Shown here: in pieces, positions 1 to 62,541 of the stretch
Position numbering within the stretch: position 1 is the stretch's first letter
Layout of the letters: every line of letters starts with the position of its first letter
From: Eledone cirrhosa
Lineage: Eukaryota
Assembly: GCA_964016885.1 (NCBI GenBank)
Contig: OZ024746.1
Location: forward strand, 37,882,001 to 37,946,000
Length of the DNA: 64,000 bases
Direction of reading: 5' to 3'
The notes under the pieces: generated by a model
What the model saw: the letters and a program-made list of their open reading frames with translations, nothing else
Told to the model about the DNA's origin: nothing
Database searches by the model: none
Made by a program: the position numbers and the translations under genes

Positions 1-1316
1 TAACGATATGTGCTTTTACGATTCTCTAGAGAGGCCGGAAGATAGGTAAATATTGCTGATGAGTTGTAACAACAACGAAACTAGTTCAATATTCCTTGTC
101 TGGCTTTCTGGAGAATAGAGGAAAGGTGTTTCCTCAAAAACCAGTATGACTCTAAAAACCGGTTTGTCTGTGTGTTTACATACAGAATAGCTGGCCACTC
201 ACAGTAAAGTGACCAGTGAAAAAACTTGGTACATCTACATATGTATACGTGTGTGTATTCATATACATACTAGTATTTCAGTATACATATATGGATGTAC
301 ATCTTTAACTTAATTGTTTAAGCGTCAGTCATACAAAAGTGAGTTACAAACGAAACGAAATTTAATTTCGTTTCGTTATTTGTTTTTATCGTCTCCGTTG
401 AACCGGTACTTACTCACACTCTATGCAAATTAGTCTGCCCACTACTAATTTTCATAGAAAAAGCATATAACGATATGTGCTTTTACGATTCTCTAGAGAG
501 GTCGGAAGATAGGTAAATATTGCTGATGAGTTGTAACAACAACGAAACTAGTTCAATATTCCTTGTCTGGCTTTCTGGAGAATAGAGGAAAGGTGTTTCC
601 TCAAAAACCAGTATGACTCTAAAAACCGGTTTGTCTGTGTGTTTACATACAGAATAGCTGGCCACTCACAGTAAAGTGACCAGTGAAAAAACTTGGTACA
701 TCTACATATGTATACGTGTGTGTATTCATATACATACTAGTATTTCAGTATACATATATGGATGTACATCTTTAACTTAATTGTTTAAGCGTCAGTCATA
801 CAAAAGTGAGTTACAAACGAAACGAAATTTAATTTCGTTTCGTTATTTGTTTTTATCGTCTCCGTTGAACCGGTACTTACTCACACTCTATGCAAATTAG
901 TCTGCCCACTACTAATTTTCATAGAAAAAGCATATAACGATATGTGCTTTTACGATTCTCTAGAGAGGCCGGAAGATAGGTAAATATTGCTGATGAGTTG
1001 TAACAACAACGAAACTAGTTCAATATTCCTTGTCTGGCTTTCTGGAGAATAGAGGAAAGGTGTTTCCTAAAAAACCAGTATGACTCTAAAAACCGGTTTG
1101 TCTGTGTGTTTACATACAGAATAGCTGGCCACTCACAGTAAAGTGACCAGTGAAAAAACTTGGTACATCTACATATGTATACGTGTGTGTATTCATATAC
1201 ATACTAGTATTTCAGTATACATATATGGATGTACATCTTTAACTTAATTGTTTAAGCGTCAGTCATACAAAAGTGAGTTACAAACGAAACGAAATTTAAT
1301 TTCGTTTCGTTATTTG

Positions 1317-1320
<4 letters not shown>
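1..1320 (+). repeat. Tandem array of 467-bp units (about 2.8 copies visible, runs off the left edge), retrozyme-like, one hammerhead per unit
   Basis: Near-identical units start at 1, 468 and 935. The array ends at a TA within the unit and runs into (TA)n at 1321. Confidence 0.95.
49..93 (+). ncRNA. Minimal type I hammerhead ribozyme (copies at 516-560 and 983-1027)
   Basis: AATATTG-CTGATGA-GTTG(taacaa)CAAC-GAA-ACTAGT-T-CAATATT: 7-bp stem I, intact core, 4-bp stem II, palindromic stem III, GUU cleavage triplet. Confidence 0.85.
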
Positions 1321-1348
<28 letters not shown>

Positions 1349-3205: not shown

Positions 3206-6102
3206 TTGTGCCAAGCTGAAAGGTTATTGAAAGACACTCTTTTCTGTTATAAAAAAACTACAATAACAACCGAACAAATCCGCTTCTTAAAACAATGTGT
3301 TTCTTCCAAAATATACACAACAAACATATCAAAACAAGTAAATAATTTATTATTGAACAAAACACAAGCTGAACGACTAAAACACACAATAACAGTTAAT
3401 ATGAAAAGAACAACATACACAAAATTCAACGAACTTTACAGACAGAAACGCATTAACTATAAGGAAGTCCAAAATCTCACCACACCAAACGAAAGGGATG
3501 ACTTCATGAGCGTCATCCGACGTGAAACGAAATACGCCCGAAACGAATGCAATAGGCATTTCAATAAGAAATTAGAATGGATGAATAAGAAAAAACTACA
3601 AGAAAGGAACATAGAATAATCTCAAAAATACCCAGATAACATCAACAATATCCGTATGACTGATGTAAAACTACCAAGAAGAATTTACCAATGACCACAC
3701 AGTAAATATTTATGGAAACACTTTAATCAGTGAACAAGAACAACAAATCCTGCAGCTACCACCAAAATTTGCCATCTATAAAAAGATTAACCCTATTCAG
3801 TGCAAAACGGAGCTGGAAAAGTGTTTCACAAAAATACGTTGGAATGCAAAAGTAAACAACAACAACAACAATAATAACGGTCGTAGTAATATAAACAATA
3901 ATTCTGAGTATAGAAATAACAGCTATAATAGTAATAGCCATAACAATAACAATAGCAGGAGAGTGAGAAATAATAATAATGGTAATAATGCTAACGATAG
4001 ACTGAACAACAACAACAACCACAATAATAATAATAGAAACATTAACTACAGACACAGCAGCAGCGACCACAGTAGTAATAACGGTAACAATACGAACAAC
4101 AACAACAACAACCACAGTGGTAATAATGGAAATAATACATGTAGCAACATTAATGATAGACACAACAAAAAGAAGAAACATAATAAAAGTAACAACCACA
4201 ATGGTAGAAATAACAGTAACAACAACAATAACGGTGAAGTAAACAACAATCACAGCAACAATACATCTAGCAATCATAACAACAATACATCTAACAATCA
4301 CAGCAACAATACATCTAGCAATCATAACAACAATACATCTAACAATCACAGCAACAATACACCTAGCAATCATAACAACAATACATCTAACAATCACAGC
4401 AACAATACATCTAGCAATCATAACAACAATACATCTAACAATCACAGCAACAATACATCTAGCAATCATAACAACAATACATCTAACAATCACAGCAACA
4501 ATACACCTAGCAATCATAACAACAATACATCTAACAATCACAGCAACAATACATCTAGCAATCATAACAATAATAATAATGCTAATGATAGGAACAACAA
4601 CAACCACCATAATAACAATTATAGCAACACACACAACTATGACGATAGATATAATGACAACACCTTAGAGAAACTATTTTTTAACCCAGCTGACAAAACA
4701 TATATGATGGGTAATATCTATCCTACGAGGTTACCCTTTAATAAAAGAGTTTGCATACCACAACAAATATATGACGAGACAGAGGCACAGTTCACCATAG
4801 CTAGAAATAAGTTTAGACAAATAGTAGACCGATATACTAAGAGACAGAGCAGAGCAGAGGCCCAACACCTTGGGAGGAAACCTGTAGAAAGCGTGGTTAG
4901 CCTCAAGCAGCGCACAAGGTATGGTGAGGTAGTATGTCTACCCACGGATAAGTCTGGTAGCATGTCAATAGATATCATGCCGAACTACGTCAAGGCTATG
5001 CAACCCCACGTCACCAACACGAGTGACATTGCACAGCAAACACATGATGGGAGAGAGAAAATCATCAACGCTCACATGATGATGTGGATCGACATCATAA
5101 AGCCAAGCAGACGCACTGCCAACAACTTCCAGGCGTCTAACAATGGCATACCACCATTGTATGGGCTCCGCAAAGACCACAAGACAGTCGACGACCCGAC
5201 AACAGGACTACCAACAAGACCCGTATGCGGAGCAAATATAGCTAGCAACTCCAGGATCTCCTACTTCCTCTCTATGGTTATACGCCCCATAATCAAGATG
5301 TCCCCAGATGTATGTGACAGTTCAGAGGACCTCCTCAGCAGAATCTGTGAGTGCAACAAAAACAGGAACCTATCCAACTGCATAATAGGCAGCATGGATA
5401 GGGTATCACTGTACCCATCAATTAACATTGATTTTGCTATGGAAAAATGTGTGGAGATGATCATTGAGATTGAGGTGGAGTTCTGCGACGTCGACACAGA
5501 CGAACTGGGCCTCCTACTTAGACTTACCTACGACACTGACTACCTAGACAGCCATGACCTTAGACGTTTCTGCCCTAGTAGACCCATAAGACGTAGACCC
5601 CCCACCATAACCTCAATGGCTAAAAAGACTCCCATGGGAAGGTGGATTGGGTGGACCAACGCTATACGGACCCCCCCAAAACAATGATCAGGTAAGAAAA
5701 ATGGTCGCACATGCAATAGGGGCTAGTATTAAAACTACCCTAAAGGGCCACATATTCAAGTTCAACGAGAAGATCTACACCCAAAATGAGGGAGCAGCCA
5801 TTGGCGTCAGCATAGCTGGTGATGTTGCCAACCTTTTTATGGTATGGTGGGAAAGGAGACTTAAAGATCTCCTTAATGAGAGCTCCATAGACCTCATCAT
5901 GTACTCTCGTTACGTAGAGGATATCAATATAGTTATAAGAACATCCCCACTAGAGAGCACTAAGAAGTTTGATTTAGAACGTAGCACAATGGAAAGCATC
6001 CAGCAGATAGTTAATTCCATACACCAGAGTATAACTGTAACTATCGACTACCCTCCCAAACACCCTAACAATGGACAACCTGTATTAGACACGGAACTCT
6101 AG
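3206..6102 (+). pseudogene. PLE reverse transcriptase, disrupted, with a long Asn-rich insert
   Basis: ORF pieces 3206-3619, about 3720-5687 and 5647-6102. Frameshift near the poly-C run at about 5670, catalytic YVDD reads YVED, stop at 6100. Confidence 0.85.
4243..4570 (+). repeat. In-frame 48-bp minisatellite (two 24-bp subunits) encoding NNHSNNTS-SNHNNNTS
   Basis: Repeating aacaatcacagcaacaatacatct/agcaatcataacaacaatacatct. A Pro variant recurs 144 bp apart. Confidence 0.9.
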
Positions 6103-6156
6103 ATTAACACTATAGACGAGAGAGCCCAAATTCTCCACTCACACTATGCTAAACCC

Positions 6157-7068
6157 ATGGCCTCAAAATACCTGATACTCAAAAACTCTGCAATGTCCAG
6201 TAGTGCTAATTTTAATATTCTGGTCGCAGATTCGGTACGATTGATGAAGAATGTGTCCCGCATGTGCGACCCAACAGAAATGGAAAGACACATCCAACAC
6301 TTCATTAACTGCATGCAGTTCTCTGGCTACAACCAAAGAGACAGAGTCAGAGTATACGAAGGAACCATGGAGAAGTATAAGACCCTCATAGAACTGGGCA
6401 TGAAAGGAATTTGCCCATTATACAGGAGCAAATCATGGAATAGCTTAAATAGGGCTAGACATAAGATAGGGAAAGCCACCTCATGGTACGACAACCAGAG
6501 ATACCAGAGTGTCATGTTTGTGGACGCTACCCCTGGAGGGAAATTAGCTAACCAGTGTAGAAAGAACCTGAGAAAGACCCACTTAAAGATTAAGGTGGTA
6601 GAAAAGCCAGGAACCACCATAAAATCCCTGATCAGCCAAACCTACCCTTTTAAGAAAACCCACTGTACTAATGGGAAATGTATCATATGTAAGGTAAACC
6701 CCCAGATAAACTGTAAGACTAGAAACGTAGTCTATAGCATAAGATGTAGAGAGGGTACTTGCAGAAACATGACAACAACATACATAGGCGAGACAGCTCG
6801 TAGCATAGGTGAAAGGATAGACCAACACTGGGGGGAACTAAAAGGACGAAAAAACGGGTCAGTACTATACGAACATGCCAGGCAACGACACGGCGGTAAC
6901 ATAGACAACATAGAAATTAGAATAATATCTAAACATAGAAATGACCCAGCAGATAGGCAAATCAGAGAGGCCAGTGAAATAGATCTTAGAAGGCCAAGAC
7001 TAAACGGAAAGAATGAATGGAATAACAACAACACCCAAACAAACAACACTGACCTAAGAGAAGGATGA
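6157..7068 (+). CDS. PLE thumb/linker and GIY-YIG endonuclease (C-terminal part of the broken PLE ORF)
   Basis: CxxxxCxxC linker, NVVYSIRC...YIGETARSIGERIDQH, conserved His, REA...P.LN. Confidence 0.85.
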   Translation: MASKYLILKNSAMSSSANFNILVADSVRLMKNVSRMCDPTEMERHIQHFINCMQFSGYNQRDRVRVYEGTMEKYKTLIELGMKGICPLYRSKSWNSLNRARHKIGKATSWYDNQRYQSVMFVDATPGGKLANQCRKNLRKTHLKIKVVEKPGTTIKSLISQTYPFKKTHCTNGKCIICKVNPQINCKTRNVVYSIRCREGTCRNMTTTYIGETARSIGERIDQHWGELKGRKNGSVLYEHARQRHGGNIDNIEIRIISKHRNDPADRQIREASEIDLRRPRLNGKNEWNNNNTQTNNTDLREG

Positions 7069-7713: not shown

Positions 7714-8146
7714 AAATGAAGTAATTCCATCGGAAAAGTCCAGGAAAAAAGAGTGCTCTATGTAGGCAACAGAGCTTAATTATTATTATTATGTAATAAA
7801 CAACATAAGGCAATTATTCCATTTACCAGTGGTTTCTTAAAAGCAAAAGGTTTTGCTTTCAATCCTCAGAACGAAAAAATCCTGGTTTGTTTATTGAATT
7901 TGGATTACAAAAACAAAAATGCAATCTATATGAAAGTGAGGCTGGAGAAGGGAGAAGGAAAGGAAAAATAAAATAAAATAAAACTACACATGCAAACACA
8001 CACACAAAAAACCCAAAAGCATACTTACACACACATACATATATACATATATATATGTACGCATACATATATACATATACACATAAGAGGACATTATCTT
8101 TCATGCTAGAAAAACTTTACTTTTTACTAATGATATTTGGCTTAAA

Positions 8147-9375
8147 ATGTCAAACCCTGAAAGCTCTTTTGATGTTGCAATGGGTTCATATGACAGTGCG
8201 GACGTGTGTGACTTAGTAGGATTATTCCTTCTTCACACACTCAAAGAGAAATTTCCGTCCCATAATATCGGTTTATACCGTGATGACGGATTAGCGGTTT
8301 CTCATACCACCAACGGCCATAATCTTGATAAATTCCGTAAAGATTTAATCAATACTTTTGCTAATCTTAACCTTAAAATTACTATAGATACGAACCTTAC
8401 TAATGCTAACTTTCTTGATATTAATATTGATCTACTTACTGCCTCTTTTAAACCCTATCATAAACCTAATGAAAATCTTAGGTATATACACAAAGAGTCT
8501 TGCCATCCCCCTATAGTTTTTAATAATCTTATTCCTAACATTAGCCGTAGGATTTCTACCTTATCTTCGTCTATAGACATTTTTAATAAAGCCGCCCCTT
8601 ATTATAATAAAGCCCTTAAGAACAGCGGTTTTACAGAAAAAATTCTTATTTACCTACTCCCCCCCCCCCTAAAACTAACCATAATAACAGGAAAAGGAAG
8701 ATTATTTGGTTCACACCCCCCTTCTCTCTAACTGTCAAAACTAATGTAGGAAGAAAATTCCTTGAACTATTAGACAAACATTTTCCTCCTATTCATAGAT
8801 ATTATAAGATTTTTAATAGGAATGTAGTTAAGATCAGCTACTCTTGTTGCCCATCTATGAAGTCCAAAATCACCAGTTCAAACCGTACGAGGATAAATCC
8901 AGGATGCAGTTGCAGGAAGCCGGATGAATGCCCATTGCAGGGTAAATGTAACACAAAATCTGTCGTTTATGAGGCTAAGATAACGCCAGTTATCAACAAC
9001 CAGCCAGCCAGGAGTGAGCGATATGTCGGTATGACCCAGGACAGGTTTAAAACCAGATTTTACTCACATGTCGCTTCTTTTAAGCACTCCGATAAACGAA
9101 CATCAACGGCCCTCGCAAGTAAGGTATGGGATCTCAAGGATAGTAATATCCCGTACTCTATTGATTGGTCTATATTAGACCATTCGAGGGAGTACCAAAG
9201 GGGCACAAAGAATTGTTCTTTGTGCACCACAGAAAAGTATAGGATTTTGCTAAACTTGAGAGCCACTTCCGCTTGACTTAACTCAAAGACTGAAATCTTC
9301 AGATGCTGTCTTCATCTGAAATCGCATCTGATCTGTAACTGGATTGACACTCCTATGATAAATCAACCGCCTTGA
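8147..9375 (+). pseudogene. PLE RT C-terminal half plus GIY-YIG endonuclease (frameshifted)
   Basis: DVAMGSYDSADVCDLVG, GLYRDDGL, FLDI, KRKIIWFTPPFS...SYSC, CSCRKPDEC (CxCx5C), VVYEA...YVGMT..RFKTR, CSLCTTEK. The frame continues past the TGA at 9274 as LNSKTEIFRCCLH to 9375. Confidence 0.85.
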
Positions 9376-26868: not shown

Positions 26869-26905
<37 letters not shown>

Positions 26906-27373
26906 GTATATATATATGCATGCTACTGTACGTCTGTATACATATATGTATGTACGTATACATACATACTTACATTTAAGTAAGTGCCATACTAAGAGTG
27001 AGAAATGAAATTCCGTTTTCATTTTTTTTTTCAACTAATCGTTTTCGGTATGCCTGACCGATTTAACTCACTCAATATGCAAATTAGGCTGCTCAGCCGT
27101 TAATTTTCATAAGGAAAGTATATACTTTCGAACGTTCAACTATCTGGCAGATGGGTAAACGGTGCTGATGATAGCTAACAAGCTTGAAACTAGTACATCG
27201 TTCCTGTGTCAGTGTTGAACAAAAAGGTGACGTGGTTGCCTTAACACCGTATGGCATAAATTCAGGCTGTTCGCTTTGTTGACAAACAAACGAACAAAGC
27301 GGCCGGCGTTATAATAAACGTAGGCTAAACTGATGCGTGCATATATGTATGTGTACCTGTATGCATATGTGTA

Positions 27374-27410
<37 letters not shown>

Positions 27411-27878
27411 GTATATATATATGCATGCTACTGTACGTCTGTATACATATATGTATGTACGTATACATACATACTTACATTTAAGTAAGTGCCATACTAA
27501 GAGTGAGAAATGAAATTCCGTTTTCATTTTTTTTTTCAACTAATCGTTTTCGGTATGCCTGACCGATTTAACTCACTCAATATGCAAATTAGGCTGCTCA
27601 GCCGTTAATTTTCATAAGGAAAGTATATACTTTCGAACGTTCAACTATCTGGCAGATGGGTAAACGGTGCTGATGATAGCTAACAAGCTTGAAACTAGTA
27701 CATCGTTCCTGTGTCAGTGTTGAACAAAAAGGTGACGTGGTTGCCTTAACACCGTATGGCATAAATTCAGGCTGTTCGCTTTGTTGACAAACAAACGAAC
27801 AAAGCGGCCGGCGTTATAATAAACGTAGGCTAAACTGATGCGTGCATATATGTATGTGTACCTGTATGCATATGTGTA

Positions 27879-27915
<37 letters not shown>

Positions 27916-28383
27916 GTATATATATATGCATGCTACTGTACGTCTGTATACATATATGTATGTACGTATACATACATACTTACATTTAAGTAAGTGCCAT
28001 ACTAAGAGTGAGAAATGAAATTCCGTTTTCATTTTTTTTTTCAACTAATCGTTTTCGGTATGCCTGACCGATTTAACTCACTCAATATGCAAATTAGGCT
28101 GCTCAGCCGTTAATTTTCATAAGGAAAGTATATACTTTCGAACGTTCAACTATCTGGCAGATGGGTAAACGGTGCTGATGATAGCTAACAAGCTTGAAAC
28201 TAGTACATCGTTCCTGTGTCAGTGTTGAACAAAAAGGTGACGTGGTTGCCTTAACACCGTATGGCATAAATTCAGGCTGTTCGCTTTGTTGACAAACAAA
28301 CGAACAAAGCGGCCGGCGTTATAATAAACGTAGGCTAAACTGATGCGTGCATATATGTATGTGTACCTGTATGCATATGTGTA

Positions 28384-28420
<37 letters not shown>

Positions 28421-28888
28421 GTATATATATATGCATGCTACTGTACGTCTGTATACATATATGTATGTACGTATACATACATACTTACATTTAAGTAAGT
28501 GCCATACTAAGAGTGAGAAATGAAATTCCGTTTTCATTTTTTTTTTCAACTAATCGTTTTCGGTATGCCTGACCGATTTAACTCACTCAATATGCAAATT
28601 AGGCTGCTCAGCCGTTAATTTTCATAAGGAAAGTATATACTTTCGAACGTTCAACTATCTGGCAGATGGGTAAACGGTGCTGATGATAGCTAACAAGCTT
28701 GAAACTAGTACATCGTTCCTGTGTCAGTGTTGAACAAAAAGGTGACGTGGTTGCCTTAACACCGTATGGCATAAATTCAGGCTGTTCGCTTTGTTGACAA
28801 ACAAACGAACAAAGCGGCCGGCGTTATAATAAACGTAGGCTAAACTGATGCGTGCATATATGTATGTGTACCTGTATGCATATGTGTA

Positions 28889-28925
<37 letters not shown>

Positions 28926-29394
28926 GTATATATATATGCATGCTACTGTACGTCTGTATACATATATGTATGTACGTATACATACATACTTACATTTAAG
29001 TAAGTGCCATACTAAGAGTGAGAAATGAAATTCCGTTTTCATTTTTTTTTTTCAACTAATCGTTTTCGGTATGCCTGACCGATTTAACTCACTCAATATG
29101 CAAATTAGGCTGCTCAGCCGTTAATTTTCATAAGGAAAGTATATACTTTCGAACGTTCAACTATCTGGCAGATGGGTAAACGGTGCTGATGATAGCTAAC
29201 AAGCTTGAAACTAGTACATCGTTCCTGTGTCAGTGTTGAACAAAAAGGTGACGTGGTTGCCTTAACACCGTATGGCATAAATTCAGGCTGTTCGCTTTGT
29301 TGACAAACAAACGAACAAAGCGGCCGGCGTTATAATAAACGTAGGCTAAACTGATGCGTGCATATATGTATGTGTACCTGTATGCATATGTGTA

Positions 29395-29431
<37 letters not shown>

Positions 29432-29899
29432 GTATATATATATGCATGCTACTGTACGTCTGTATACATATATGTATGTACGTATACATACATACTTACA
29501 TTTAAGTAAGTGCCATACTAAGAGTGAGAAATGAAATTCCGTTTTCATTTTTTTTTTCAACTAATCGTTTTCGGTATGCCTGACCGATTTAACTCACTCA
29601 ATATGCAAATTAGGCTGCTCAGCCGTTAATTTTCATAAGGAAAGTATATACTTTCGAACGTTCAACTATCTGGCAGATGGGTAAACGGTGCTGATGATAG
29701 CTAACAAGCTTGAAACTAGTACATCGTTCCTGTGTCAGTGTTGAACAAAAAGGTGACGTGGTTGCCTTAACACCGTATGGCATAAATTCAGGCTGTTCGC
29801 TTTGTTGACAAACAAACGAACAAAGCGGCCGGCGTTATAATAAACGTAGGCTAAACTGATGCGTGCATATATGTATGTGTACCTGTATGCATATGTGTA

Positions 29900-29936
<37 letters not shown>

Positions 29937-30004
29937 GTATATATATATGCATGCTACTGTACGTCTGTATACATATATGTATGTACGTATACATACATAC
30001 TTAC

Positions 30005-30064
<60 letters not shown>

Positions 30065-45280: not shown

Positions 45281-45351
45281 TATTTTATCTGATGAGAACG
45301 CAAATATCATCCCATGTTGATATTTGTTTTTGAAATGCGCATAATAAAATA
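45281..45351 (+). ncRNA. Intact type I hammerhead in a solo (TA)n-flanked element (about 45035-45385)
   Basis: TATTTTAT-CTGATGA-GAACGCAAATATCA(loop)TGATATTTGTTTTT-GAA-ATGCGCAT-A-ATAAAATA. Confidence 0.85.
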
Positions 45352-46494: not shown

Positions 46495-49400
46495 ATGGGT
46501 ATGACATTAAACTACATCCTGTGGCAAGGCTCCAGTTCGGGAGTTCAGGAGATGTGGGGAATGTGGAGTTACCCCTTAGTTGTCATGACTCCCAGGTCTG
46601 CCCTGGCCCGGGGTGGTAGTACCTGTTAGGGCTCCATTTATGGGTTAAATAACTACCTTATTCGAGTGGCGCCGGTAAGGTATTGTCAGCCATTGAAAAG
46701 AAATATGGAGAGTCGATCTAACAGCACTAGGGTTAGAGCCCCTAATTACACTGTCAAGGAGCAGCCTGGTCGTTATGACTCTGCTGGCTTAGAGCCACAG
46801 AGAGGGCCAGTGGATGATGGATCAGCTGTCTCTGAGACAAATATAAAGAATGCAGTTTTGTCCTGCAGAAGAGCCATCAAAATGGGCACTTTGAATGTGA
46901 GGACTATTCGAACGCTGGAGAAGAGAGAGGAGTTGGGACATCTGTTCGAGGAGAGTGGTATACAGATACTTGCGATCCAAGAACACAGGATTCTACACGA
47001 TGAGCCCGTGAGGAGTGTGATGATCGGGAGGAAGAGCCAGCTCATCACTACATCGGCAGTGAAGAACACAACAAATGCTGCAGTAGGAGGAGTGGGTTTT
47101 GTGTTCAGTGCAAAAACCAATCTGTTGGTGAGGGAAATAATGCCTATCTCCCCGCGAGTGTTGAGGGTGACCTTCAACGGAAACCCAAGACTGACAGTCA
47201 TCTCAGCCTATAGTCCAACCGAGGGGGACAGTGATGTGAATGCCGAGGAGTTCCATGAGGAGGTGTGCAGAGCTGTCAACACCACTCAGGCACACAATAT
47301 CCTGCTTGTTTTGGGGGACTTCAATGCACATCTGAGTAAGGAGGACAGTGAAGATCCTTGCTGGTACTTCCATAACAACACCAACCGAAATGGAAGACTA
47401 CTGAGAGACACCCTGCTGGAGGCGAACTTGATGGCGACCAACCTAAGGTTTAGGAAGAATCTGGGGAAGATGTGGACCTACATCTCAGATATGCATCTGT
47501 CCAAGTCCCAGATTGATTTCATTCTGGTGAGGAAAAAGTGGCGGAATAGTGTTCTGAACACGGAACCATACAGCTATTTCAGTACACTGGGTAGTGACCA
47601 CCGGCTTGTTATGAGTGAGGTCCGCGTGAGCCTAAGAAAGAGCAAGGCTCAGCCCCGGAGAACAATCTATGACTGGGGAGCTTTCAAGGAAGATGAGAAG
47701 CTACAGGAGAGGTTCACAGTGGAAGTGAGAAACAGGTTTAGTGCTGTGTGGAGAGTCAGAGGAGAGAGAGATTGGATGGACTGAGGAGAGTGTGACGAGG
47801 AGGTACGGGCACTTCACCAATGCAGTGGCGAAAGCAAGTGAAACCCTGGTGCCGAGGAAAAAGAACAAAGGGAAGCACGTCAGCTCTGCAAACCCAAAAG
47901 TGTGTGCAGCCAGAGAACATCTGAAAGCTGCCAGAGACCAATTCTATGCTGATCCTACGGAGGAGAGGGTGGAGACTGTGGAGGTGATGAGGGAAGAGCT
48001 CTGTACCGCTTACACTGAGGTCAGAGAGGAGGCACTGATAGAGAAGATCAGAAGTGTGGAGAGAGCGGTTGACAGATCTGGATGTAAGGAGAGCTGGATG
48101 ATCATCAACGAGATCACAGGGAGGAAGAAAAGGTGTTCGAGTCAGATCCAGGGAACGGGGCCCGAGGATAGGAAGAGGAAATGGCTAGACCATTTTAGGA
48201 CCCTACTAGGAGAGCCACCCTCCACAGCCCGTAGAACTGGGGAGATCAGGCGGCTGTTTGAGGAACTGGATGTTGAGACAGAGCCCTTCACCAGAGAGGA
48301 GCTTCAGAGAGCCAAGAAGAGTATCAAGGAGGGCAAGGCTCATGGAGTAGATGGAGTCGCATCAGAGGTGATGAAGAGGTGTGATTTTGATGATATCATC
48401 CTGGGGTTCTGTAACGGGGCACTGGAGAAAGGAGTTGCCCCGAATCAGTGGAGGATCAGTAACATCGTCCCAGTGCCAAAGAAGGGAGATCTCTCTAACA
48501 CCAACAACTACCGGGGGATCTCACTGACGTCACTTGTGGCAAAGACCCTCAACAGGATGATTCTTAACAGGATCCAGCCTGAGATGGAGAAGAAGCTCAG
48601 GGACAACCAGAACGGCTTCAGAGAGGGTAGATCAACCACCAGTCACATCCTGATGCTGAGGAGGATATTAGAGGGAGCTAGAGCAAAGTGCCTTCCTGCG
48701 GTCATGGTTTTCATTGACTTTAGGAAGGCCTTTGATTCTGTGGACCGTTACTGCCTGATGAAGATCTTGCAGGCTTATGGAATCCCCAAGAGGATAGTGG
48801 ACCTGATATCACTGCTCTACACCAACACCAAAGCCCAAGTCATTACACCTGATGGGATGACAGAGTTCTTTGAGATACTGGCTGGAGTGCTCCAGGGAGA
48901 TATATTGGCTCCCTACCTTTTTATCATCGTAGTGGACTATTGTATGCGCCTTGCACTGGAGAAACACCAGGACACTGGCTTTACTGTAGCACCGGCTCAG
49001 AGCAGGAGAGTTGGGGCGAAAAAGGTATCGGATGCTGAATTTGCCGACGATATAGTTTTGGTGACAAATACAGTGAAGGAGGCAGAGGATGTGATGCGGG
49101 AGGTTGAGACTGTGTCGATGAGTGTGGGGCTGAGAATGAATGAGACTAAAACAAAATATCTGGTAGAGAATGTTGAGAAGCCAGAGGGGATCACTAATGT
49201 AGGCGGGAAGCCGCTGGAATTGGTTGAGGAATTTCTGTATTTGGGAGCAAAGATTGGGAATACGGAAGATGATGTGGTTGAGAGGAAGAGCAAGGCCTGG
49301 GCGGCGTGTCACCACTTGAGATCGGTGTGGATGTCGGACCTTCGTAGAGACTGAAAATCCGCCTCTTCATTGCTGTAGTGGAGTCTGTGCTGCTGTATGG

Positions 49401-49805
49401 GTCTGAGACTTGGACACTGACCAATAGACTCACTCAGATGGTGGATGGGTGCTACACGAGAATGCTGAGGATGGCTCTGAACATTAATCAGTATACACTG
49501 AGGATGAAAAACTCAGAGCTGTATGGGAGCATCCCAAAAGTCAGCTCAAAAGTGACACAGAGGAGACTGAGGTTGGCTGGACATGCTCACCGACATCCAG
49601 AGTTGACATTGCACTCAGTGCTCCTTTGGGAGCCCCTACATGGACACACTAGAAGAGGAAGACCAAAGTTAACATATGTTGATGCCCTAAGGACAGACAC
49701 TGGTCTGTTGGAGATGCAGGATATGGCAGCGATAATGAGGGACAGAGACCGCTGGAGAGGACTCGTCCATGGATCTCGGGAATTTTACCCGCCTTAGATA
49801 GATAT
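46495..49805 (+). mobile_element. Near-intact full-length RTE-clade LINE
   Basis: 5' UTR, single APE-RT ORF, stop codon running into a short (TAGA) tail and (TA)n. Confidence 0.92.
46705..49797 (+). pseudogene. APE endonuclease-reverse transcriptase polyprotein with two frameshifts
   Basis: APE motifs GTLNVRT, LAIQEHR, GDFNA, SQIDFIL, SDH. RT motifs NYRGISL, QNGFR, FIDFRKAFD, GVLQG, FADD, FLYLG. C-terminal LLYGSETW, RRLRLAGH. Frame changes at about 47745 and about 49350. Confidence 0.9.
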
Positions 49806-61960: not shown

Positions 61961-62206
61961 AGAGTGTGTGTGTGTGTGAGAGAGAGAGAGAATTTTCAAT
62001 ATCTGCAGATGCTGGACTAGGTTCAAACATATATAAATGTCCATATGTTTACTATATATGTTCATTAATGTTGAGGCATCGAGAGAATTCTGTCTCTATA
62101 AGTGTGTGTCTGCCTATATATATATATAGTATTAGAAAGTGAGGTTTTTTTCACAAAATGAAAAATAACCAGGGTGTCCTACACGAGTGAAAGTATAAAA
62201 AAAAAG

Positions 62207-62534
62207 ATGAAATCGAAAATGCAACTGGAGTCTTATTTAAAAAAATATATATATATTTATTTGGTTCCTTTACCGGTTTCGCAGTTCTTCTGCTTTTCAA
62301 AAGTAGAGTTGAGATGGAGGGTCTGTGGTTATTTTTACATCTGGTTGGTCTCTGAATGTTACTTCTTTTATATGGAAAAAAGTAAGTAACATTCAGAGAC
62401 CAACCAGATGTGAGAAAAACCACAGACCCTCCATCTCAACTCTACTTTTGAAAAGCAGAAGTACTGCGACACCGGTAAAGGAACCAAATTAATATATATA
62501 TTTAAAAAAAAATAAAACTGCAGTTGCATTTTCG

Positions 62535-62541
<7 letters not shown>
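62207..62541. repeat. Fold-back element, about 158-bp arms, 19-nt spacer
   Basis: 62207-62364 is inverse to 62384-62541. Confidence 0.9.

Follow-up and report, generated by a model that had tools for sequence, protein, structure and literature searches.

Hammerhead motifs with a U3-A8 pair in the core have already been published for Penelope-like elements, including the exact UUGAAAA core in Schistosoma (PMC4209133). The Cercyon Penelope-like elements of Schistosoma mansoni carry U3-A8 hammerheads with ~1,300 hits (Cervera and de la Pena 2014, PMC4209133), and the supplement to that paper gives UUGAAAAA in one element-linked row and UUGAUAAA in another row. According to the same source, Penelope-like motifs show no activity as monomers and weak activity as dimers. 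Natural U3-A8 cores, with in vitro activity in earlier work, also appear in PMC3088659. The motif of a lizard element, Poseidon of Anolis carolinensis, cleaves only after protein addition; insertion in vitro does not require cleavage, and none of the reads had its end at the cut site (PMC11167929). General background is given in PMC6765202, PMC6431247 and bioRxiv 10.64898/2026.07.22.740005.

The DNA analysed here (the window, a 64-kb stretch of Eledone cirrhosa) contains three such motifs, which belong to families called A, B and C below (Table 1). The first-pass annotation had read them as minimal hammerheads with a U3-A8 core that a CUGANGA pattern would miss, and this reading was borne out: all three have exactly the sequence first described, at the positions and on the strands given for them (62300-62271 on the minus strand for motif 1, family A). 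A structure-aware pattern matches the window at four sites and has no match in any of 60 dinucleotide shuffles. No hammerhead family is reported at the three motif sites among the 150 of 308 Rfam matches listed. The ACA of the family C copy at 21152 is a G12A change from the family form GCA, which is found in 97 of 100 listed copies. The other arm of this insertion, described as having GCAA, does start at GCAA (~21193) but lacks a UUGAAAA core.

Table 1. Positions of the motifs, fold-back insertions and ORF overlaps (window coordinates unless a locus is named)
Feature	Position	Strand	Description
Family A minimal type I hammerhead motif	62268..62303	(-)	motif 1
Family A motif, stem I	62303-62301 with 62270-62268	(-)	3 bp here, 4 bp in most copies
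Family A motif, core U3-A9	62300-62294	(-)	
Family A motif, stem II	62293-62281	(-)	
Family A motif, G12-A14	62280-62278	(-)	
Family A motif, palindrome	62277-62272	(-)	
Family A motif, A17	62271	(-)	predicted cut between 62271 and 62270
Family A second motif, inverted arm	62448-62477	(+)	GAC instead of GAA (A14C)
Family B motif (motif 2)	14964..15001	(+)	core intact, C17, stem II 5 bp, stem I 2 bp
Family B second motif, other arm	14644..14681	(-)	intact
Family C motif (motif 3)	21122..21152	(-)	stem I 3 bp; family form G12-C13-A14 (A13C), plus G12A here
Family A direct arm	62115..62380	(-)	5'-truncated 3' pLTR and tail, ends in (TA)n; 92% identity over 268 nt to full-length family A 3' end
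Family A inverted arm, without tail	62384..62541	(+)	holds motif 62448-62477
Family B fold-back insertion	14479..15113		arms 14479-14817 (-, with tail) and 14817-15113 (+); 97% identity to full-length family B 3' end
Family C fold-back insertion	20940..21393		arms 20940-21191 (-, with tail) and 21190-21393 (+, ends inside motif)
ORF1/ORF2 overlap with U-run heptamer	L063:4992-5079, L131:4816-4900, L132:4707-4773		relatives L283-L360

The three motifs sit in fold-back insertions that had been taken for unrelated elements. If three unrelated elements (e.g. MITE-like DNA transposons) had converged on, or exchanged, a new hammerhead variant, this would agree with arms that share no sequence outside the motif and with the likeness of the fold-backs to terminal inverted repeats in the raw window. 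Such an origin is extremely improbable, as full-length RT+GIY-YIG elements provide a 3'-end match for every arm, and families A, B and C form one clade of the RT tree (support 96) with families I and J and unlabelled relatives from other samples; I and J are two of the three further U3-A8 families (H, I and J) found in the genome. The window fold-backs are evidently 5'-truncated, inverted copies of three sister families of Penelope-like retrotransposons, whose ORF proteins are 56–57% identical. The motifs themselves correspond, by all sequence matches, to the 3' pseudo-LTR (pLTR) ends of these elements, a placement that the annotation had missed. Identity to the full-length family C element at its 3' end is 99% for one family C arm and 89% for the other.

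In the fold-backs, the direct arm carries a tail and the inverted arm does not. Across 30 family A loci the 5' ends vary, the 3' end is mostly at one of two fixed positions beside (TA)n, and there is often an inverted copy in which the final ~65 bases are missing. A truncation, inversion and tail pattern of this kind has been described for Penelope-like elements (PMC8557442, PMC3846280). One family A locus extends into the C-terminus of a GIY-YIG protein, which was used as a genome query and gave 150 scored matches listed of 10,603 candidates, many of them in a 775-residue open frame. In 29 of 30 loci picked by the endonuclease protein alone, an intact family A core lies 1.0–1.4 kb downstream. 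Non-LTR retrozymes were considered as carriers and rejected, since the copies derive from coding elements, as their solo or inverted ends, and are not head-to-tail non-coding units of a few hundred bases.

Full-length elements have intact RT+GIY-YIG ORFs of 775 (A), 777 and 784 (B and C) residues, and the motif is located ~1 kb past the end of the ORF and 170–195 nt ahead of the (TA)n target. A pLTR position downstream of this ORF is found in families A, B, C, I and J; for family H, an upstream ORF is absent in all 12 stretches examined. Pfam places GIY-YIG above its cut-off in the A and C proteins and RVT_1 in C only; it finds neither domain in the family B protein, and no match in eight broken window ORFs or in three ORF1 proteins. 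All three proteins contain a C-x4-C-x2-C linker ahead of the nuclease. In this linker and in the domain order, the elements resemble Neptune-clade EN+ elements (PMC8557442, PMC3846280); the linker is shared with Nematis (PMC8557442). The elements differ from the Neptune-clade EN+ elements described in the same sources in a 3' UTR of ~1 kb, a tail of 40–65 nt and an ORF1 that overlaps ORF2, with a predicted -1 frameshift between them, whereas a single ORF is described for canonical EN+ elements. Broken Penelope-like ORFs are also present elsewhere in the window, at 3669-7068 (+) and 8087-9276 (+), the former with a long asparagine-rich insert made of a 24-bp repeat.

In families A, B and C, an upstream ORF1 (409–455 codons from stop to stop) overlaps ORF2, and each overlap includes a UUUUUUA-type U-run heptamer in the -1 register. 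This heptamer is found in register at 24 of the 26 clade loci and at none of ten more distant loci, in lists that were picked after a first look and include some near-copies and one site further upstream than the others. We take the heptamer to resemble retroviral slippery sites, and the endonuclease-containing Penelope-like elements described here are predicted to use a programmed -1 ribosomal frameshift. A splice acceptor was considered as an alternative explanation of the signal and rejected, because an AG is missing at six of the 24 sites, these six ending in G. The literature consulted gave no other description of an ORF1/ORF2 frameshift, which may nevertheless be known: a figure legend in PMC8557442 mentions an ORF1 frameshift, with no clade named in the accompanying text.

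The pattern search with a U3-A8 core that the annotation had suggested, run genome-wide, finds ~26,600 exact matches in the 3.0-Gb genome (with slight overlap), where N7 is A, U or C, in at least six families. Cores with N7=A and GAA account for 16,896 exact matches versus one for the reversed pattern, and ~2,054 of them belong to family B. Family C contributes 6,306 exact matches (control, 0), and U3-A8 cores with N7 other than A give 3,412 (control, 49). CUGANGA-based counts thus overlook ~26,000 motifs in this genome. Mismatched cores are rare, with 269 U3-G8 and 407 C3-A8 matches (~1–1.5% of copies), which is about the level expected from later point mutation. The canonical core combined with the same palindrome gives 124 matches versus 171 in controls. 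Canonical motifs are frequent with other palindromes: a sample of evenly spaced stretches totalling 600 kb yields 32 hits, of which 23 are C3-G8 and five U3-A8 (reversed control, six hits), a ratio that understates canonical motifs because the sample filter needed a perfect palindrome and missed the canonical family D. U3-A8 cores with other stem III palindromes give 1,551 matches versus 469 in controls, with no further convincing family among the 100 listed; these are damaged family A copies, stemless repeats or junctions of a canonical family. The motif search gave no assignable motif for family G, an older relative in the genome (~40–50% identical).

Comparison of the six families almost certainly identifies the motifs of A, B and C as hammerhead homologs. 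All six share G5, A6, A8, A9, G12, A14, A15.1 and U16.1, along with the U3-A8 Watson-Crick pair and the ACCGGU palindrome, although the search patterns demanded the palindrome and core conservation is partly built in, since copies were mostly chosen by motif pattern. G12-A13-A14-A15.1 and U16.1-H17 are found in A, B, H, I and J; C lacks A13. N7 is A, U or C across the families. Stem II is 4–5 bp long, and its sequence differs between families yet remains paired. The closing pair 10.1–11.1 is G-C in A, B, C and H and U-U or U-A in I and J. Stem I, which the annotation had called short, measures 2–4 bp, compared with ~3–6 bp expected for minimal type I hammerheads of Penelope-like elements: 4 bp in 70 of 91 copies of A, 3 bp in 50 of 52 copies of C, and 2 bp in all 46 copies of B, 23 of 24 of H and 14 of 19 of I, while family J pairs GCAA with UUGC (4 bp). 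The family consensus and covariation check proposed there shows that stem I both pairs and covaries, and the lack of pairing named there as a refutation is not seen. Its two strands change together (CCUU/AAGG, UUU/AAA, AU/AU, GCAA/UUGC), and pairing within the own family is the best of 720 assignments, a total reached by six of them; the families are related and represent approximately four independent stem I states.

These data also bear on the idea that the motifs are relics of an ancestral hammerhead that lost its function in an AT-rich lineage and is now drifting. The weak stem I, A13C and the U-U at 10.1–11.1 in I and J would suit such decay, and the C-to-U and G-to-A changes fit an AT bias. 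Against it, flanks and stems have turned over between families whose proteins share just 56–57% identity, yet core, palindrome and stem pairing persist, and U10.1-U11.1 is a tolerated natural variant (PMC3088659). Judging from the compensatory changes, the relic reading appears largely refuted, and we regard it as quite improbable.

The annotation had proposed a variant hammerhead lineage; the variant is real, but its UUGAAAA core was already in print for Penelope-like elements (PMC4209133), and the U3-A8 finding as such therefore matters little. The Cercyon families Sm3 and Sm4 resemble the families described here in having a type I minimal pLTR motif with U3-A8, UUGAAAA/UUGAUAA spellings, G10.1-C11.1, a palindromic stem III, and solo and inverted copies (PMC4209133). 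In contrast to Cercyon, the carrier here has a Neptune-type Cys linker, and families A, B, C and H lack an extra base between positions 9 and 10.1. Furthermore, the stem III palindrome is 6 nt long here versus 4 nt in Cercyon, N17 is mostly A versus U or G in two Cercyon rows, there are ~26,000 copies versus ~1,300, and family C has acquired A13C (PMC4209133). The natural U3-A8 core variants of Perreault et al. (2011, PMC3088659) provide several examples of the same compensatory pair; that paper's core-variant section contains no A13C, and its examples do not appear to be tied to Penelope-like elements. The Poseidon hammerhead shares with the present motifs a pLTR position shortly before the start of the ORF that follows in a tandem and two 3' ends that define a tail, but it belongs to another clade, has a canonical C3-G8 pair and cleaves only with protein (PMC11167929), whereas cleavage here is a prediction.

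Because families A, B and C are related, their three U3-A8 cores represent one inherited change and not three. Over the RT tree as a whole, the core label changes between C3-G8 and U3-A8 at least five times, and relatives from other samples have a C3-G8 or a U3-A8 motif at the same position in the element, with an A3-U8 motif on one outside contig. By this reconstruction, the 3-8 pair has switched several times among Penelope-like elements. The tree is a quick IQ-TREE analysis of 56 proteins with SH-aLRT support only, in which 19 are labelled C3-G8, ten U3-A8 and 27 are unlabelled; family H is absent, family G is unlabelled and one core label was taken from a 5' copy.

Partial tandems (loci L061, L063 and L127-L132) contain two same-strand motifs ~4–5 kb apart, the first located ~200 nt upstream of ORF1. 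In a tandem transcript, two motifs would pair via their ACCGGU palindromes to form stem III, with the U3-A8 pair standing in for C3-G8, and a cut after N17 would trim the precursor RNA just upstream of ORF1 of the next unit. The protein of the element may help a weak dimer cleavage. We predict that solo and fold-back copies, the window ones among them, are by-products without activity. Fold prediction makes dimers 5–10 kcal/mol more stable than two monomers for all eight motifs considered; most of these dimers pair via the palindrome, which the best dimer of family B does not. The hammerhead fold is the lowest-energy monomer only for family A and one outside motif among the eight. In B, H and I, a stem I of just 2 bp counts against strong activity; the annotation had rightly called activity uncertain. 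The motifs are probably pLTR hammerhead-fold elements of three sister Penelope-like families with a shared U3-A8 core, which would likely self-cleave only as dimers, weakly and with the likely assistance of protein. For families A and B, we put measurable dimer cleavage at roughly even chances; for family C it seems unlikely.

The reservation about family C stems from C13, which is present in 51 of 52 examined copies as well as in 97 of 100 listed ones. GAA is retained in the sister families I and J, which makes A13C a derived change. The change is predicted to cripple cutting, but family C has reached ~6,300 copies with intact ORFs, and A13C therefore did not stop its amplification. By this substitution, family C would be classed as a derived hammerhead homolog and not as a canonical member. 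An incomplete literature search met no description of A13C in hammerheads, and novelty is not claimed.

A second potential impediment is A17, which is able to pair with U3 in A, C, I and J as well as in the majority of H copies (B has C17); the fold program does form a U3-A17 pair in family A. A C3-G17 pair has been proposed as a trap of minimal hammerheads (PMC3884650), and U3-A17 could trap the motif as C3-G17 does. In the solved hammerhead core A13 pairs with C17 (PMC7092961), so that, speculatively, C13 and A17 might be a reversed version of this pair.

The fold may be kept for a job other than cutting, for instance as a pLTR handle for dimerisation or protein binding, with a core conserved for its shape and with U3-A17 pairing or A13C switching off catalysis at no cost. 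We consider this possible but less likely than the weak dimer cleavage set out above. It would accommodate the fixation of A13C in family C next to sisters that retain A13, a 2-bp stem I in three families, an A17 facing U3 in all but one of the six families, and the absence of an effect of catalytic mutants of a related element on in vitro insertion (PMC11167929). The handle reading accounts less well for the eight core nucleotides that are constant in six families, for a 3-8 pair, important for the catalytic fold, that stays Watson-Crick across the tree, and for the lack of an amplified family with a mismatched 3-8 pair among the matches listed. More specifically, we tentatively entertain that an active Penelope-like clade keeps a catalytically locked or lost hammerhead (U3-A17, A13C) as such a handle, or that C13-A17 is a working reversed A13-C17, a natural core for which no published description was met. 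If either were true, the reason why these elements keep hammerheads would be directly testable in a natural series (B with C17; A and I with A17; C with C13 and A17). The six families form a natural mutant series on whether such ribozymes need to cut, and weak, likely protein-assisted dimer cleavage remains our preferred reading of the three window motifs.

Several other hammerheads and repeats were seen alongside these elements. A head-to-tail 467-bp repeat at window positions 1-1323 carries canonical hammerheads at 56-86, 523-553 and 990-1020 (+) with a 7-bp stem I; it is retrozyme-like and has a weak Rfam HH9 match. Family D, at 20567 (+) and 13091 (-), is represented by minimal hammerheads with the canonical CUGAAGA core, one additional base and a stem I of 4 bp; endonuclease-like fragments lie upstream of them, at 20077-20445 and 13491-14276. 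Canonical-core hammerheads with a stem I of 7–8 bp occur in other repeat families at 12513-12558 (+), 7869-7824 (-) and 45289-45343 (+). Outside Eledone, two metagenome contigs (L338:8401-9080 and L355:5667-6011) contain a distant element with clustered hammerheads that have C3-G8, U3-A8 and A3-U8 cores, and Penelope-like elements in bacterial genome bins (L359-L361) most likely represent contamination with animal DNA. Finally, the window includes non-LTR retrotransposon ORFs at 46630-49797 (+), judged by eye to be endonuclease- and RT-like, and, at 22445-30009, a 505-bp unit in an inverted array with arms of up to 1,840 nt at 100% identity.
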